Shown piece by piece: positions 9,981 to 33,963 of a stretch of DNA of 40,520 bases (positions are counted from its first letter, which is position 1; each line of letters begins with the position of its first letter). The stretch lies in assembly GCA_041663045.1 (NCBI GenBank), contig JBAZRH010000002.1:73179-113698 (forward strand), written 5' to 3'. Origin of the DNA: Minisyncoccota bacterium. GTDB taxonomy: Bacteria > Patescibacteriota > Minisyncoccia > Phycocordibacterales > GWA1-40-21. Position numbers and translations under genes: made by a program. The notes under the pieces were generated by a model. That model saw only the letters and a list, made by a program, of their open reading frames with translations, searched no databases and was not told where the DNA came from.

Positions 9981-10037
9981 AGACTTAATTTTACTCCAGA
10001 AAAAGAAAAAGCAAAGAGTAGACAAGGAGAAAAAAAC

Positions 10038-10078
10038 AATGCAAAAGGCGGCGCACGAAGTGCGCCGCCTTTTGCATT
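10038..10078. terminator. 19-bp perfect hairpin with c-GAA-g triloop
   Basis: aatgcaaaaggcggcgcac-gaa-gtgcgccgccttttgcatt. Confidence 0.6.
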
Positions 10079-10096
10079 TCTTATTTCACTTCCACC

Positions 10097-10123
10097 CACG
10101 CATACTTTTTTGCTAAAAAGTTG
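10097..10123 (-). repeat. Partial inverted copy of the repeat family A sub-hairpin
   Basis: cacgcatacttttttgctaaaaagttg matches the reverse complement of the family A core at 25/27 positions; the two changes are one compensatory pair (A-T to C-G). Confidence 0.7.
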
Positions 10124-10132
10124 TCTGGGCCC

Positions 10133-10320
10133 TCCTTACAGGAGCAGTATACCTTTCACATTTTGAATACAAAACGTTCAAGGTCTTTCATTTGGGTCCC
10201 ATCCCAAATCTCAACCTCGGCTCGTCAGCCTCCGGCCGGTTGAGGTTAAAACAAAAAGTGCGTTCAGAACGCACTTTTTTGCTATTTAACCTCAATTCCT
10301 TACAGGAACAGTACACCTTT
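10133..10320. repeat. 24-bp direct repeats (10133-10156, 10297-10320) enclosing nested hairpins
   Basis: tccttacaggagcagtataccttt vs tccttacaggaacagtacaccttt (2 mismatches). Inside: ttgaggttaaa/tttaacctcaa enclosing aaaaagtgcgt-tcaga-acgcacttttt. Confidence 0.65.
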
Positions 10321-10377
10321 TGGATACTTTATTTCGTAATACTCATAAACTATCTCAAAAGGTCCGTTGAAGTCAAA

Positions 10378-13536: not shown

Positions 13537-13576
13537 TTTATTTAAATATCTTAGACTCGTTGAAGTCGTATCTTTT

Positions 13577-13690
13577 AGACTTGCGAGATGTCGTTTTTTT
13601 GGAGACTCTCGGAGCACGACTGGTGCGAGAGGGAGCAAATTTTTAGCAAAAAATTATGCGTGCTCCAAAAAGGCGACATCTCGCAAGTCT
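13577..13690. repeat. Repeat family A, copy 1: 78-bp core (13596-13673) inside a 17-bp perfect terminal inverted repeat
   Basis: Core identical to 15683-15760; arms agacttgcgagatgtcg / cgacatctcgcaagtct; starts 2 nt after the methyltransferase stop. Confidence 0.9.
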
Positions 13691-13691
13691 T

Positions 13692-14570
13692 CTAAACATT
13701 ATTCCACCTTGCAAATATACCACAAGGCAAAAGGCGACCAGATTTCCCCTCCTCTATAGTAAGCTCGCCATATTCCATCTCCCCACCAAATCCCTGAACA
13801 ACATGCGCTAAAGCATTTTTGTATGCTGCTGAAGAATATCCTGAAGCATAGCCGTTTATCAAAAAGAAAAGCGGTTTGTCGGAAAGGATTTTCGCACAAT
13901 TGTCCAAAAGATCCAAGAAATTTTCTTCAATCTTCCAAAGCTCGCCTTTTCCTCCCCTGCCAAAAGATGGCGGGTCCATAATTATCCCATCATATTTATT
14001 GCCTCTCTTCATTTCCCTTATGACAAATTTCCTTGCATCATCTAGAATCCACCTCACCGGCTTTTTATCCAAACCAGAAAGCTCGGCATTTTCTTTTGCC
14101 CAAGAGATAGCAGAAGTCGAACCATCTACATGCACCACTTCCGCTCCAGCAGAAAGGCAGGCGAGAGTTGCTCCACCAGTGTATCCAAAAAGATTCAAAA
14201 CTTTCACAGATCTCCCAGCTTTTTTTATAATTTCGCTTGTCCAATCCCAATTTGGCTTTTGTTCAGGGAAAACTCCTGTATGCTTAAAAGCTGTCGGTTT
14301 AATATTAAATTTCAAATCGCCAAATGCTATCTGCCATTCGCCCAGCATGTCCTTTTCTTTTTTCCAACCTTTTTTGTCGGGATTTGCATAGAAAAATGCG
14401 TTGGCACCTTTCCAATCGCTTTCTGGCAAAAGTTTTTTCCAAAGTGCCTGTGGATCCGGCCTGCGCAAAACATACTTGCCATATCTCTCAAGTTTTTCGC
14501 CATTCCCGCTGTCTATAAGCTCGTAATCCTTGCTCACCTCTGTCTTTAATATTGAAAATCTGTGTTCCAT
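13692..14570 (-). CDS. Class I SAM-dependent methyltransferase, RlmI/RlmK(YwbD)-like, COG1092 type
   Basis: DYELIDSG..EKLERYG, RPDPQALW, FKHTGVFPEQ, VLNLFGYTGGAT, IIMDPPSFG. Confidence 0.85.
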   Translation of the reverse strand: MEHRFSILKTEVSKDYELIDSGNGEKLERYGKYVLRRPDPQALWKKLLPESDWKGANAFFYANPDKKGWKKEKDMLGEWQIAFGDLKFNIKPTAFKHTGVFPEQKPNWDWTSEIIKKAGRSVKVLNLFGYTGGATLACLSAGAEVVHVDGSTSAISWAKENAELSGLDKKPVRWILDDARKFVIREMKRGNKYDGIIMDPPSFGRGGKGELWKIEENFLDLLDNCAKILSDKPLFFLINGYASGYSSAAYKNALAHVVQGFGGEMEYGELTIEEGKSGRLLPCGIFARWNNV

Positions 14571-14651
14571 TGGAATTACAATAACACAGTTTTGATAAAT
14601 AAGAAAGTGTACTACATATTAAAAATCTAATATTTTTGATATAATACCAAT

Positions 14652-14837
14652 ATGAAAAATGACTCTCTGAGTCCAATTATTAGATTTGGACTAATACTAT
14701 TTGGAGCAATATTTATACTGGGTGTAATTAGATCATTAAAAATAAATAATCTTGAATCCATGTTTAAGATATGGGTATCGATACTCATAATCTTAGGAAT
14801 TATTCTTGTGCTGTTTATTAGTAAGAAAGACAAATAG
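14652..14837 (+). CDS. Small two-TM membrane protein, hypothetical
   Basis: 61 aa with two hydrophobic helices and a basic C-terminus; fills the gap between two minus-strand genes. Confidence 0.5.
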   Translation: MKNDSLSPIIRFGLILFGAIFILGVIRSLKINNLESMFKIWVSILIILGIILVLFISKKDK

Positions 14838-14841
14838 TACA

Positions 14842-15642
14842 TCAGGAAACATCAAAAACTCTTCCTGAATTTTCTAAAAGTTGTAATCGCACCCTTTCTG
14901 GATCTTCCCCGCGGATTTCAGCGATTTTTTTATAAACTTCCACTACATAGGCCGGCTCATTGCGCTCTCCCCTGTGTGGGATAGGCGTAGCAAAAGGAGA
15001 ATCCGTCTCGGCGTGGATTTTATCAAGCAGAATTGTTTTTATAACTTTATCAAAGTCTCTGACATAGGTGATAATGCCGGGGAAAGAAATTGTAAAACCG
15101 AGGTCAATAAAATTCTCGGCGGTTTTGAGATTTGAAGTGAAGAAATGCAGATTGCCAAAAACTTTTCCTTCATATTTTTTGAGAATTTCATAAGTGTCGT
15201 CGTAAGCCTCACGAATATGAAGCATTAAAGGTTTTTTGTATTTGATGGCAAATAAAATATGTTTTTCAAATTCGGCTTTTTGGCGAGATTTTTCTGCTTC
15301 TGTCTTCCTTATTCCGCGATTATCTGCGTCCAGTCCGCGTGGTTCCGCGTAGTCGAGACCACACTCACCTATCGCCACCACTTTCGGACTTTTTACGAGC
15401 TTTTCATATTCTTTTTCATCAAATACTTCGCCAGAATTATCATCTGGATGTGCACCAATGCAAGCCCAGACATTTCCATTTGCTTCAGCAATTTTCACCG
15501 CTTCTTTTGAACTTTCCAAACCTGTGCCGATAGTAATAGTCGCCACACCGGCATTTTTCATCCTTTCCAAAACAGCATCCCTGTCGGTGCCATAGCTTTC
15601 AAAATCTAAATGTGAGTGAATGTCTATGTACTTCATTTCCAT
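14842..15642 (-). CDS. tatD: TatD-family 3'-5' exonuclease/DNase
   Basis: IDIHSHL, IGAHP, AIGECGLDY, MLHIR, LHFF, ETDSPF..P...RG..NEP. Confidence 0.93.
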   Translation of the reverse strand: MEMKYIDIHSHLDFESYGTDRDAVLERMKNAGVATITIGTGLESSKEAVKIAEANGNVWACIGAHPDDNSGEVFDEKEYEKLVKSPKVVAIGECGLDYAEPRGLDADNRGIRKTEAEKSRQKAEFEKHILFAIKYKKPLMLHIREAYDDTYEILKKYEGKVFGNLHFFTSNLKTAENFIDLGFTISFPGIITYVRDFDKVIKTILLDKIHAETDSPFATPIPHRGERNEPAYVVEVYKKIAEIRGEDPERVRLQLLENSGRVFDVS

Positions 15643-15672
15643 TTTCGTTATTTAATGTTTATAGGCGAGCGA

Positions 15673-15768
15673 AATAGTATTCTTTTTGGAGACTCTCGGA
15701 GCACGACTGGTGCGAGAGGGAGCAAATTTTTAGCAAAAAATTATGCGTGCTCCAAAAAGGATACTATT
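15673..15768. repeat. Repeat family A, copy 2: same 78-bp core (15683-15760) with a different outer stem
   Basis: Core identical to copy 1; arms aatagtat / atactatt; flanked by gcgagc on both sides; just after the metG stop. Confidence 0.9.
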
Positions 15769-15778
15769 GAGCGAGCCA

Positions 15779-17332
15779 CTACTCTACCCGTAAGAACAAC
15801 GGTTTCTCCGGATTTTTATCTTCTTTTATCAAAGTTAAAATCGCTTTTGAGGTTTCCGGCATTATTGGCAAAAGTTTAAGGGTAATTCCTCTCAAATGTG
15901 TGAGAAGATACACCAAATCTTTTTCTCCTCCAACTTTATCTGTCTTTATCTTTGCAAAAGGTTTTTCTTTTTGAATATATCCGTCAAGTGATTTTATATC
16001 CGCCCAGATTTCATCGCAATAATTTTTGATTTCAAATTTCTCAAGAAAATCTACTTTCATATCCGAAGACCAGAATTCAGAAGCTGTATCACCCACTTTC
16101 ACGCCATTTACCGTCGCCATTTTCATAATCCTACTCACCAGATTCCCCAAACCATTTGCAAGATTGGCATTGTAAGCTTCTTTGAAAGATTCAGCAGACA
16201 TCGGGCCATCTTCAAAAGTATTTATTTCTCTTGCGACAAAATATCGCAGTGCATCTGTGCCGTATTTTTGTATTAGCTCTACCGGACCGACGACATTGCC
16301 GATACTTTTGCTCATCTTCACTCCACCAGGGCCAGTAACAAAGCCATCTATCACGACCGTCTTTGAATTCGGCAAACCACAAGCCATAAGCATTGCTTGC
16401 CACATTGCAGACTGCTGGCGAAGATTGTCTTTTCCACAGTATTGCACCATACCGCCGGTATTTACATGCCATTTCTCATACTTCTTCATATCGCTCGGCC
16501 AGCCGATCGCCGAAACATAGTTTACAAGTGCATCAAACCAGACATACATTGTGTGTTCGCTATCTCCCGGCACTTCTATACCCCATGGCATTTTGCTCTT
16601 TAATCTTGAAATACTGAAATCCTGCAAACCTCTTTTCACAAAAGCTTTTATCTCATTGAATCTAAAATCTGGAATCACAAAATCCGGATTCTTCTCATAA
16701 TATGCCAAGAGTTTTTCGCCAAATGCGGAAAATCTAAAAAAGTAATTCTCTTCGTCGCGGATTTCAAGAGTGAGATTCGGATGATCAGGGCATTTGCCGT
16801 CTGTAAGGTCGGAATCTGTCTTTTCAAGCTCGCAACCGACGCAATATTTCGTTTGATAATTCTTTTTATAAATATAGCCATTCTTATCGCAAACTTTCCA
16901 AAAATCTTCGGCTGTTTTTATATGATTCTCGTCTGTCGTCCTTATGAAATTGCGAGTAATACCCTCTTCTTCTGTAAGTCCAAGAAGTTTTATAAGCTCT
17001 TTGAATTTGCCGGTGTAGAAATCGACAAATTCTTGTGGTGTCTGCCCAGCTTCTTTTGCTTTTTGAAAAATCTTTTGGCCATGCTCATCTGTGCCGGTAT
17101 TAAAAAACACCTCATACCCCGTGAGCTTTTTGTAGCGAGCGATAATATCCGCACGCACCATTTCAAGAGCATGCCCCATATGCGCTTCGGCATTTACATA
17201 CGGCAGAGTAGTAGTTATGTAGAAGTAGCCTTTGGCTCTTATAGTTCGACTTCGCTCGGACATCGTGCCCACATCAGAATGTGGTCGTGCCGCTCCTCGC
17301 TCGTCGAAATAGAATAATTTTTTCCCTTTCAT
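15779..17332 (-). CDS. metG: Methionine--tRNA ligase (short form), with a ~30-aa N-terminal insertion
   Basis: YITTTLPYVN..HMGH, GTDEHGQK, YCVGCE..CPDH knuckle, YVWFDAL, KMSKS. ATG overlaps the upstream TAA (TAATG). Confidence 0.96.
   Translation of the reverse strand: MKGKKLFYFDERGAARPHSDVGTMSERSRTIRAKGYFYITTTLPYVNAEAHMGHALEMVRADIIARYKKLTGYEVFFNTGTDEHGQKIFQKAKEAGQTPQEFVDFYTGKFKELIKLLGLTEEEGITRNFIRTTDENHIKTAEDFWKVCDKNGYIYKKNYQTKYCVGCELEKTDSDLTDGKCPDHPNLTLEIRDEENYFFRFSAFGEKLLAYYEKNPDFVIPDFRFNEIKAFVKRGLQDFSISRLKSKMPWGIEVPGDSEHTMYVWFDALVNYVSAIGWPSDMKKYEKWHVNTGGMVQYCGKDNLRQQSAMWQAMLMACGLPNSKTVVIDGFVTGPGGVKMSKSIGNVVGPVELIQKYGTDALRYFVAREINTFEDGPMSAESFKEAYNANLANGLGNLVSRIMKMATVNGVKVGDTASEFWSSDMKVDFLEKFEIKNYCDEIWADIKSLDGYIQKEKPFAKIKTDKVGGEKDLVYLLTHLRGITLKLLPIMPETSKAILTLIKEDKNPEKPLFLRVE
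17243..17311. repeat. Palindromic element in frame within the metG 5' end
   Basis: TTCGAC...GTCGAA arms, internal ccacATCAGAATgtgg hairpin (17269-17284), duplicated GAGCGA and GCACGA motifs. Confidence 0.65.
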
Positions 17333-32112: not shown

Positions 32113-32358
32113 ATGGATGTAAACAATACAAATAAAAATGGTTCGGGGGCGATAATAGGAGCTATAATCGTGATCGTTGTCCTTATCGCTGGGGGGTTCT
32201 ACTTCTACACCCAGAGAATAAACAAGCAGAGACAATTTGAAGCGATGAAAAATACGGTTACGCAATCTACTTCTGTAACAAAGGATATAGATTCTTTACT
32301 CATCGAGGCCTCGTCGACAGATCTAAATAATCTAGGCGATGGAATAGAAAATCTATAA
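32113..32358 (+). CDS. Small single-TM hypothetical protein
   Basis: GAIIGAIIVIVVLIAGGFYFY TM followed by a polar tail. Confidence 0.7.
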   Translation: MDVNNTNKNGSGAIIGAIIVIVVLIAGGFYFYTQRINKQRQFEAMKNTVTQSTSVTKDIDSLLIEASSTDLNNLGDGIENL

Positions 32359-32551
32359 AAGCTCGCTCGTATCACCATTTTTCATCAGTGTGCCTTCACC
32401 CCAAAGAAAATCATAGTCGCTGTTCTATACGAAAAATCAAGAACTCGCTGTATCAGAATACAGCTCAAACAACTTGATTTTTCTAAACAGCTCCTTGATT
32501 TTACTTGGGGTTCTCGGCAATGATGAAAAATGGTGATATTCGCTCGCTTAC
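32355..32551. repeat. Repeat family B, copy 1 (197 bp, nested hairpin, 18-bp terminal inverted repeat)
   Basis: About 95% identical (10 mismatches) to 33767-33963; arms tatcaccatttttcatca / tgatgaaaaatggtgata; ATCAGAAT apex at 32452-32459. Confidence 0.9.
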
Positions 32552-33766: not shown

Positions 33767-33963
33767 ATAAAAGCTCCCTCATATCACCATTTTTCATCAG
33801 TGTGCCTTCACCCCAAAGAAAATCATAGTCGCTGTTCTATACGAAAAATCAAGAACTCGCCACATCAGAATGTGTCTCAAACAACTTGATTTTTCTAAAC
33901 AGCTCTTTGATTTTACTTGGGGTTCTCGGCAATGATGAAAAATGGTGATATTCGCTCGCTTAC
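33767..33963. repeat. Repeat family B, copy 2
   Basis: Direct repeat of 32355-32551 at offset 1412; apical stem altered by three compensatory pair changes. Confidence 0.9.

Follow-up and report, generated by a model that had tools for sequence, protein, structure and literature searches.

REP/BIME/REPIN sequences of Enterobacteria and Pseudomonas, together with their RAYT enzymes, are multi-copy intergenic hairpins that have no coding capacity, are often located right behind stop codons, differ in copy number among relatives and act or move as folded single strands. Integron attC sites are conserved in structure and not in sequence, have strand-specific non-canonical features, and follow immediately behind the stop codon of the gene before them, with their orientation fixed. 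PATEs, which are derived from IS200/IS605, lack terminal inverted repeats and target duplications, are strand-specific and insert directly 3' of a short target. Most of these features recur in the element analyzed here, which would likewise act or move as a folded single strand and whose short target would be TAA or TAG. However, each system also differs from it. REPs are short (20-40 nt) palindrome units conserved in sequence, whereas the element is ~115 nt long, carries a three-way-junction head on a hypervariable stem of free sequence and has no GTAG-type REP sequence. In contrast to attC sites, its copies are dispersed on both contigs of the genome among housekeeping genes (metG, tatD) with no cassette array; it lacks R''/L'' core sites and is headed by a three-way junction where attC has a simple bulged hairpin. 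Compared with PATEs, it forms one long hairpin and not two subterminal ones, and the genome contains no Y1 transposase (PF01797). In addition, IS200/IS605-type transposition uses the lagging-strand template, whereas the folded strand is here on the leading-strand template.

Rickettsia palindromic elements, Correia/NEMIS, ERIC and BOX/RUP are small non-autonomous MITE-like bacterial repeats (~100-150 nt) that fold into long hairpins and are gained or lost between relatives; either their arms are conserved in sequence or terminal inverted repeats and target-site duplications are present. In the element, only the pairing, a closing motif and the head are conserved, the arms being free in sequence, and the stop-codon register is exact; the terminal inverted repeats and target-site duplications that mark IS-derived MITEs were not found. 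Finally, Ssn nucleases are associated with NTS/SRM sequences, oriented hairpin repeats present in many copies and read as ssDNA, in which the SRMs are simple 20-50-nt hairpins flanking the gene of their small GIY-YIG nuclease (PMC11893778). No small GIY-YIG gene was seen flanking the element.

Two copies in the window and their fold

We analyzed a window of 40,520 nt (the whole stretch of DNA under study) from a Minisyncoccota genome. A repeat search of the window revealed a 78-nt direct repeat with 100% identity, and folding agreed with the initial annotation that these identical cores are enclosed by differing, self-complementary flanks. Both copies lie on the plus strand with the hairpin base 0-1 nt from the stop codon of a minus-strand gene, so that their placement right after stop codons in the same orientation was also confirmed. 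The parts of the two copies are as follows (G000 denotes this genome).

13577-13690, plus strand: copy 1, entire hairpin element, 114 nt (covariance-model match at G000:C2:86755-86868, 116.4 bits)
13577-13593 with 13674-13690, plus strand: outer arms of copy 1, a perfect 17-bp stem
13594-95 with 13672-73, plus strand: U.G pairs linking the outer arms of copy 1 to the core's own 9-bp stem
13596-13673, plus strand: core of copy 1
13596-13604 with 13663-13671, plus strand: inner P1 of copy 1
13606-13631, plus strand: P2 of copy 1, with tandem G.A
13635-13659, plus strand: P3 of copy 1, A/U stem with AGCA loop and bulged A
13660-13662, plus strand: junction GUG of copy 1
13692-13694, minus strand: stop codon TAG of a methyltransferase-like ORF (13692-14570), with 1 nt between it and the 3' base of copy 1
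13537-13576, plus strand: spacer of 40 nt that separates copy 1 from the start codon (13536) of the downstream minus-strand gene
15663-15778, plus strand: copy 2, entire hairpin element, 116 nt (covariance-model match at G000:C2:88841-88956, 134.7 bits)
15664-15672 (GGCGAGCGA) and 15769-15777 (GAGCGAGCC), plus strand: G.A-motif base of copy 2
15683-15760, plus strand: core of copy 2, identical to that of copy 1
15683-15691 with 15750-15758, plus strand: inner P1 of copy 2
15693-15718, plus strand: P2 of copy 2
15722-15746, plus strand: P3 of copy 2
15747-15749, plus strand: junction GUG of copy 2
15779-15781, minus strand: stop codon TAG of metG (15779-17332), abutting the 3' end of copy 2
15643-15662, plus strand: spacer of ~20 nt between copy 2 and the start codon ATG of tatD (15640-15642, minus strand)

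One DNA run from the source sample gave a depth of 52.8 for the core unitig, compared with 25.8-28.7 for the unique flanks. The depth of the core is about twice that of its flanks, which fits two genuine copies and speaks against an assembly artefact. The arms of copy 2 (AATAGTAT/ATACTATT) form an 8-bp variable stem followed by a U.G and a C-G pair, and an additional motif, GGCGAGCGA...TGAGCGAGCC, was found outside them.

A copy of the element measures ~115-135 nt (115-190 nt for the copies of this genome). It consists of a short pyrimidine-rich leader (10-20 nt), a long stem, a helix segment whose sequence is free and a conserved three-way-junction head. Two tandem G.A pairs (GCGAGCGA/GAGCGAGC) often close the stem, and the head is composed of P2 with tandem G.A, an A/U-rich P3 with an AGCA loop and a bulged A, and the GUG junction. 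The extent given initially, a 78-nt core with arms, therefore holds as far as it goes, but the element is longer, as it includes the closing G.A motif and the leader. The fold is strongly supported by covariation. Of 40 pairs, 27 were compensatory among the copies of this genome alone; across genomes, 94% of cells were paired (62% in shuffles and at most 52% in slid controls), and both-side changes were present in 38 of the 40 pairs. Folding z-scores of the two window copies against shuffles were -8.9 and -6.7. Selection for shape, as proposed in the initial annotation, is thus borne out directly. On the other hand, the conserved fold belongs to the strand opposite the adjacent genes and not to the mRNA strand: the model strand was the more stable one in 52 of 56 and in 72 of 79 copies, G.U pairs numbered 122 on the model strand versus 47 on the opposite strand, and the tandem G.A motif is present on the model strand only. 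In genome G010 the leader could pair with the P3 loop (UUUUUCUGCU with AGCAGAAAAA), but this contact was dropped because no covariation was observed for it in other copies.

Unlike an intrinsic terminator, neither window copy combines a GC-rich hairpin with a U-tract. A consensus scan gave no terminator-like call and no promoter consensus at either copy, and no U-tract follows the hairpin on either strand (mean T in the 10 nt after the hairpin, 3.9 on the model strand and 2.7 on the gene strand). A hammerhead-like core was also considered and rejected: the tandem G.A by P2 resembles helix II, but G5, A6 and A14 are missing, and the strands of the junction read A(C), GGA/CGA and GUG, compared with CUGANGA...GAAA at the hammerhead three-way junction.

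Spread of the family

With a covariance model, we identified ~29 copies in this 724-kb genome, on both contigs; the model also detected the element in 33 of the 41 genomes analyzed from the same order (0-32 copies each), and some close relatives have none. Hundreds of further copies occur in relatives, and the 29-nt core pattern was present in at least 120 contigs of other, diverse Patescibacteria. Neither element in the window matched Rfam 15 even at E<=10, the window as a whole had no match at gathering thresholds, and no phage or plasmid carriers were matched. The genome-wide, CPR and Rfam searches suggested in the initial annotation thus revealed many copies and no known family, and this family of ~115-base hairpin-shaped insertions in Patescibacteria/CPR is apparently uncatalogued.

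Recent spread is suggested by copies that are nearly or wholly identical. Genome G010 has three that are identical including the arms, at different loci or contig ends, and a peat metatranscriptome contig contains an entire element with ~96% identity within different flanks. One orthologous copy is 100% identical between two genomes whose flanks differ by ~4%, which could fit a selected host function as well as a selfish element. It should be noted that only DNA runs were available for the source sample, and that the sole transcript-level match was the peat RNA contig, which is unstranded.

The third, inverted fragment noticed initially, with its compensatory change, was confirmed as a P3 hairpin with an A-U to C-G swap. 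It is part of a larger composite structured region and no broken copy:

10088-10330, minus strand: composite structured region with a P2-like hairpin (GGCU-GACG-AGCC), a ~85-nt module and a P3-like hairpin
10097-10123, minus strand: P3-like hairpin, with C-G in place of one A-U pair (compensatory), and CGUG junction
10029-10087, minus strand: canonical intrinsic terminator (GC-rich 16-bp stem, then T run), which ends the composite region

The composite region is in sense orientation to its neighbours and has a paralogue at G000:C1:115780-116000. Its ~85-nt module has three further copies in the genome, four in all.

Insertion behind stop codons and recombination of parts

Comparison with relatives showed that the entire hairpin, arms included, is inserted DNA. 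The element was absent at either window junction in all 25 congeners, which answers the comparison of empty and filled sites proposed in the initial annotation. The two genes around copy 1 are separated by just 8-20 nt in relatives, and the metG-tatD gap is 1-8 nt in most relatives compared; the closest one reads TAG-T-ATG, and this genome TAG-T-[114 nt]-21 nt-ATG. Insertion into an existing hairpin or terminator was rejected, as the orthologous junctions of relatives are mostly 1-20 nt long and without a palindrome. No direct flanking repeats were found at the two sites with empty-site comparisons, the ends (the leader, TTCTGCCAGT..., and GAGCGAGCCT) are not mutual inverted copies, and no empty/filled polymorphism was seen within one population.

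The element lands immediately 3' of TAA or TAG on the coding strand. A reverse-complement stop triplet was located exactly 3 nt after GAGYGAG in 35 of the 43 GA-closed copies (81%; background 4.8%), and the targeting of gene 3' ends that had been proposed can be sharpened to this fixed stop-codon register. Six of 24 such triplets do not terminate a frame of at least 60 codons. In this order, it is the antisense strand of the gene that bears the G.U and G.A pairs: 38 copies were antisense only and five sense only. In a phylum-wide sample, 15 copies were antisense and 14 sense; therefore, the antisense rule is not intrinsic to the core, and the bias in orientation is specific to the lineage. Leading-strand synthesis and transcription both use the folded strand as template, and gene direction and GC skew run together. 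Replication direction was rejected as the factor that sets orientation, since the orientation of the two discordant copies agrees with the gene and not with the fork, although this sample is small.

The similarities of arms and cores disagree. The copy behind metG is 92% identical in its arms and 88% in its core to a copy 31 kb away (C2:57475), whereas it shares 100% of its core and only 54% of its arms with the neighbouring window copy. The arms described initially as exchangeable thus reflect recombination among family members: they are indeed swapped, but they are no free add-ons and are passed on together with the element and reshuffled. In G010, P2 and P3 alleles are found in all four combinations, and arms, P2 and P3 recombine between copies. 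Such recombination of parts explains the identical cores on unrelated arms, which are most simply a gene-conversion tract between copies 2.1 kb apart.

It was also considered that arms are made anew from the target at each insertion. This was rejected for these copies, as arms like those of the metG copy are present at C2:57475 and in the peat contig, and the young G010 copies have common arms; neither window site has arms matching the target sequence. The idea seems to hold for relatives of the element that follow tRNA genes, in which the final 19 nt of the tRNA are repeated in duplex form by the stem. A role of arms as guides against other loci was rejected as well: the long arms had no second match in the genome beyond chance (blastn-short).

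Nature of the element and its meaning

Taken together, we consider the window loci to be copies of a non-autonomous, structure-defined insertion element widespread in Patescibacteria, with a probability of roughly 0.6. The reading proposed in the initial annotation, a structured non-autonomous mobile element or ncRNA under selection for shape that targets gene 3' ends, is supported by the many copies, the lack of an Rfam match, the covariation and the stop-codon register. The form under selection would be the folded single strand in model orientation, as DNA or RNA, and a trans-acting factor that is not encoded beside the element may recognize the junction and the closing motif. Insertion is probably site-specific for the position after TAR, and selection for this position is not fully separable from targeting; the orientation that survives would also leave the start codon of the following gene free of the hairpin.

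No mobilising enzyme was found among three candidate families, none of which had a phyletic or positional link to the element. For Y1/RAYT (PF01797), there was no match in this genome despite its ~29 copies, and ten RAYT-like genes of relatives are, in contrast to a REP/RAYT arrangement with the element, flanked by their own simple palindromes, with no element detected beside them by the model. The reverse transcriptase RVT_1 was present in just 16 of 41 genomes and did not track copy number; G009, G026 and G036 carry 17-19 copies without it, which also sets the element apart from SINE-like retroelements that require this enzyme. Small GIY-YIG genes did not track copy number either. The single one in this genome (C1:408504-408722) is ~10 kb from the nearest element, and none was found in G026 (17 copies) or G005 (6 copies). 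A bolder version of the insertion-element reading, which we regard as rather doubtful, is that of a new kind of gene-less element defined by shape and not by sequence, whose folded single strand would direct integration at the phosphodiester just 3' of TAA or TAG, catalyzed by its own RNA or DNA or by a universal host enzyme, the stem being a copy of the target in the tRNA variants.

As a rather unlikely alternative, the copies might be genuine small RNA genes (a new ribozyme or RNA-protein scaffold), with the model strand transcribed independently and copy number reflecting duplication and loss. The very strong covariation, the strand-specific G.U and G.A pairs and the conservation of the GAC, AGCA and GUG loop and junction nucleotides across the order would fit this explanation. 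Three weaker relatives after tRNA genes run in the direction of the tRNA, so that their transcripts would have the model sense. Also in line with it are the composite copy at 10088-10330, which has the orientation of its neighbours and a real terminator at its end, and the presence of an element in a metatranscriptome contig. However, the overhangs of that contig (54 and 82 nt past the element on its two sides) resemble read-through and not a discrete small RNA, the two window copies lack promoter and terminator consensus as well as a U-tract on either strand, and antisense transcription into a gene end would be required for 38 of the 43 copies in the order. Zero copies in some close relatives also argue against it, and so does the Rfam search at E<=10, by which no known ribozyme family was matched; the hammerhead core motif was absent by eye.

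An unlikely explanation is that of a cis-acting 3'-UTR or intercistronic mRNA element like REP/BIME, which would stabilise the upstream cistron, uncouple cistrons or modulate termination. The fixed register with the stop codon, the one conserved orthologous copy and the peat RNA contig, which is continuous with a gene end, are in line with such a role, and the hairpin of the mRNA strand is also very stable (-41 to -56 kcal/mol). Nevertheless, the mRNA strand folds worse in 52 of 56 copies, its conserved G.A tandems turning into U.C/C.U mismatches, and orientation is random in the phylum-wide sample. Moreover, the orthologous operons of the 25 congeners function without the element, with genes 1-8 nt apart in most relatives compared, and 6 of the 24 adjacent triplets close no long frame.

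It is equally improbable that the element is a folded ssDNA site for a host enzyme that spreads as a by-product, be it of Xer-type or integron-like recombination, of a strand-specific nuclease acting on incoming DNA or of a replication or repair factor. Structure is conserved with stem sequence free and with strand-specific non-Watson-Crick features as in attC, the position is directly behind stop codons, the tRNA-associated relatives, with a stem that repeats the tRNA's final 19 nt, are reminiscent of folded attachment sites that copy their target, and oriented hairpin repeats recognized as ssDNA are known (Ssn/NTS, PMC11893778). On the other side, copies are scattered among housekeeping genes without a cassette array, no match was seen between the window arms and the target sequence, the distribution of small GIY-YIG genes does not follow that of the element and the folded strand is the leading-strand template. 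Finally, a single local duplication that produced just these two copies, as their identical cores merely 2,087 nt apart might suggest, is refuted by the copies throughout this genome (~29 on both contigs) and the hundreds in related genomes, by the unrelated flanks and by the match of one copy's arms to a copy 31 kb away.

Patescibacteria have genomes among the smallest and most streamlined of bacteria, and yet ~0.5% of this genome consists of the element. Many "orphan" intergenic hairpins, as well as many of the contig breaks in CPR assemblies, would be accounted for by an annotated model. The family unites structural selection on one strand, an exact stop-codon register, modular recombination and the absence of an associated enzyme gene, and this combination points to an unrecognised kind of DNA movement, a new class of structured RNA or a host system that reads folded single strands. 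As the sequences are short and well defined, each of these possibilities can be tested at the bench.

Two copies in the window and their insertion sites

The initial annotation had described a repeat with identical 78-bp cores and exchangeable, self-complementary arms, and the repeat proved real. Its two copies are as follows:

13577-13690 (+): copy 1, beside a methyltransferase-like gene
15663-15778 (+): metG copy, beside metG

The 78-nt cores (13596-13673 and 15683-15760) are identical, and the flanking arms pair in both, forming a perfect 17-bp closing stem in copy 1 and an 8-bp stem in the metG copy; U.G or C-G pairs connect each of these to the 9-bp stem of the core itself (TTTTTGGAG/CTCCAAAAA). 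Predicted energies were far below those of shuffled controls (z-scores of -8.9 and -6.7). Sequencing depth in the DNA run from the source sample was 52.8 for the shared core unitig versus 26-29 for unique flanks (∼2x), and therefore the two identical copies are real. Each element lies 0-1 nt past a stop codon, that of the methyltransferase-like gene for copy 1 and that of metG for the metG copy, on the strand opposite to these genes; every long open reading frame nearby is carried by the minus strand, and no promoter or terminator consensus was found adjoining the two copies.

Comparison of filled and empty sites showed that both copies are insertions. The gene order metG-tatD-methyltransferase-next gene is kept in the genus, and the element was absent from both loci in 25 congeners. 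The metG/tatD junction reads GAA TAG T ATG in the closest relative, and GAG TAG T, a 114-nt hairpin, 21 nt and ATG in the source genome (G000); the methyltransferase/next-gene gap is 155 nt in the latter versus 8-20 nt in relatives. No pre-existing palindrome was observed in relatives at either site, and thus the arms came in together with the element. In addition, tatD orthologues of five relatives (G004, G006, G009, G010 and G016; loci L067-L076) have a TatD match interrupted by 43-69 nt while remaining one open frame of ∼295-311 aa; this corresponds to extra in-frame sequence inserted around residue 146, which G000 lacks.

Distribution and fold of the hairpin family

The repeat is more than one local duplication, the alternative raised by the initial annotation. 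A BLAST search with the core identified a minimum of 10 additional copies, distributed over both contigs (C1 and C2) of the source genome (724 kb, 38% GC) at 78-90% identity, and covariance model R1, built from an alignment of ten copies (A1), found ∼29. Copies matching R1 were present in 33 of 41 same-order genomes (0-32 per genome); the closest relative, G012, had none. Only 10 of 401 genomes in an evenly drawn phylum sample, searched with stricter filters, were positive, and the R1 subfamily is therefore centred on its own order. A 29-nt pattern of the P3 hairpin plus junction occurred in at least 120 contigs; wherever a lineage is given in the record title, it is Patescibacteria/CPR (Nomura-, Wildermuth-, Taylor-, Zambryski-, Uhr-, Kaiser-, Yonathbacteria and others). 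The family had zero matches in Rfam 15 and in phage and plasmid records, and full-text literature searches turned up no description of it. Over the P3 module of the metG copy (15710-15751), summed contig depth in DNA run X1 was 446-771 versus ∼26 on the flanks; the 23 contigs concerned imply that many other organisms of the groundwater sample carry family members.

Parts of the element, from the outside inwards
Leader: outermost, 10-20 nt, lineage-conserved (TTTTTCTGCTCTGCCAGT in relative G010, TTCTGCAAGT in G000, TTGTATTTTCAC elsewhere)
Outer helix: 3 bp, inside the leader
Closing motif: GCGAGCGA...GAGCGAGC, GC pairs alternating with two tandem G.A pairs
Free-sequence helix: 8-10 bp, between closing motif and inner P1
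Inner P1, then three-way junction with P2 and P3: innermost parts
P2: second tandem G.A, 4-bp covarying helix, GAC(U)G loop
P3: A/U stem, bulged A, AGCA loop; then junction GUG

Compensatory changes were found in 27 of 40 pairs among the copies of G000 alone, and both-sided changes in 38 of 40 among 31 distinct copies from ∼29 genomes, in which 94.4% of cells were paired (shuffled controls, 61.9%; slid controls, no more than 52%). Some copies have Watson-Crick pairs at the tandem G.A positions, with either side changed (GA/TC, TC/GA, AA/TT, TA/TA), copy 1 being such a variant. The GA-closed stem, or chassis, also bears heads other than the P2/P3 junction: for example, one has an extra module (GGGGTGGCGA...ACAGGACCCC) and a second variable stem, and another is larger and multi-hairpin. 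One copy is nested within a second GA-closed stem. A 212-nt model match in G016 (L038:810-1021) has a run of N inside P2, a masked or withheld stretch in an enlarged copy. We also observed a two-hairpin module of ∼85 nt (AUUUGGG..CCCAAAU, then ACCUUGAACGUUUUG..CAAAAUGUGAAAGGU), always within a larger structured element and once beside tRNA-Glu, at four places in G000:

window 10130-10215 (-)
G000:C1:115821-115935
G000:C1:340046-340135
G000:C1:287176-287229

The strand described by the model folded more stably than the opposite one in 52 of 56 copies from the order (mean difference 7.1 kcal/mol) and in 72 of 79 copies of a phylum-wide set. We counted 122 G.U pairs on this strand versus 47 on the complement, where the G.A tandems become U.C/C.U mismatches. 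Thus, selection acts on the structure of the strand that is antisense to both metG and the methyltransferase gene.

Position relative to genes and probable exchange among copies

The positions of 56 copies from 29 genomes fit the suggestion that gene 3' ends are targeted: an antisense-gene stop codon lay -9 to +5 nt from the element 3' end in 30 and within 35 nt in 42. The register is fixed, TTA, CTA or TCA standing exactly 3 nt past GAGYGAG in 35 of 43 GA-closed copies (background 4.8%). Six of 24 such triplets, one of them inside a nested element, end no frame of at least 60 codons, which hints at specificity for the stop triplet itself, short genes being possible. Within the order, 38 copies were antisense only versus 5 sense only, whereas a phylum-wide set picked by core pattern gave 15 versus 14; the bias is therefore a property of this lineage's chassis and not of the head. 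Gene direction follows GC skew, and in the two copies beside lagging-strand genes orientation tracks the gene rather than the replication fork. Three weaker relatives in G000 lie behind tRNA genes in sense orientation:

G000:C2:249536-249700, behind tRNA-Val
G000:C1:286873-287010, behind tRNA-Glu(CUC)
G000:C1:352000-352152, behind tRNA-Glu(UUC)

In the first, the 3' arm repeats the final 19 nt of the tRNA without change and is followed by a T run; the 5' arm is its complement.

Arm and core identities do not run in parallel. The metG copy shares 92% arm and 88% core identity with C2:57475, and 54% and 100% with neighbouring copy 1; C2:57475 and C2:235733 have cores 97% and arms 55% identical. 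Three copies in G010 are identical end to end, arms included, and among its other copies two P2 and two P3 alleles, which differ through paired substitutions, occur in each of the four possible combinations; likewise, G019 has near-identical heads on distinct arm lineages. Recombination or gene conversion among copies is the simplest account of this mismatch, and for the window pair would involve a conversion tract of ∼80 nt, the two copies being separated by 2,087 nt.

Candidate partner enzymes and interpretation

PF01797 (Y1/RAYT) was absent from G000, and its homologues in relatives were flanked by short palindromes of their own instead of this element. RAYT-like Y1 proteins of 218-256 aa (motifs YHIxNRG, MPNHFH and YIHLNP) are encoded at loci L100-L109 (G019, G026, G030, G009, G036, G010, G040, G033, G027 and G038); most of these ten genes have genome-specific palindromes on their flanks, for example ACTATCGAGGTTGAACCTCGATAGT, and they make up a REP/RAYT-like system of these Patescibacteria that is distinct from the present element. 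RVT_1 occurred in 16 of 41 genomes, unrelated to element copy number. Near a reverse-transcriptase gene (G000:C2:107391-107969), a 197-nt direct repeat (95% identity; window 32355-32551 and 33767-33963) is consistent with the template/variable repeat pair of a diversity-generating retroelement. Small GIY-YIG genes were common, yet absent from G026 and G005, which contain 17 and 6 copies of the element. Such single-domain genes (∼84-125 aa) reach up to ∼10 copies per 0.7-Mb genome in G004, G007, G008, G011, G013, G018 and G022; a length of precisely 91 aa recurs in many of them and points to a small mobile nuclease gene.

The sequencing runs of the source study are all DNA. One 248-nt contig from an unstranded peat metatranscriptome contained the whole element at ∼96% identity between different flanks, with TAA 2 nt past its 3' end; it provides a second context and possibly reflects transcription, though of either strand. 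That the copies form an RNA gene family appears unlikely, and both an mRNA cis-element and a host single-stranded-DNA site seem quite improbable. We favour, with a probability of about 0.6, a non-autonomous mobile element whose active form is a folded single strand and whose identical cores stem from modular recombination. The window copies belong to a widespread family of hairpin insertions defined by structure, which appears to be uncatalogued.
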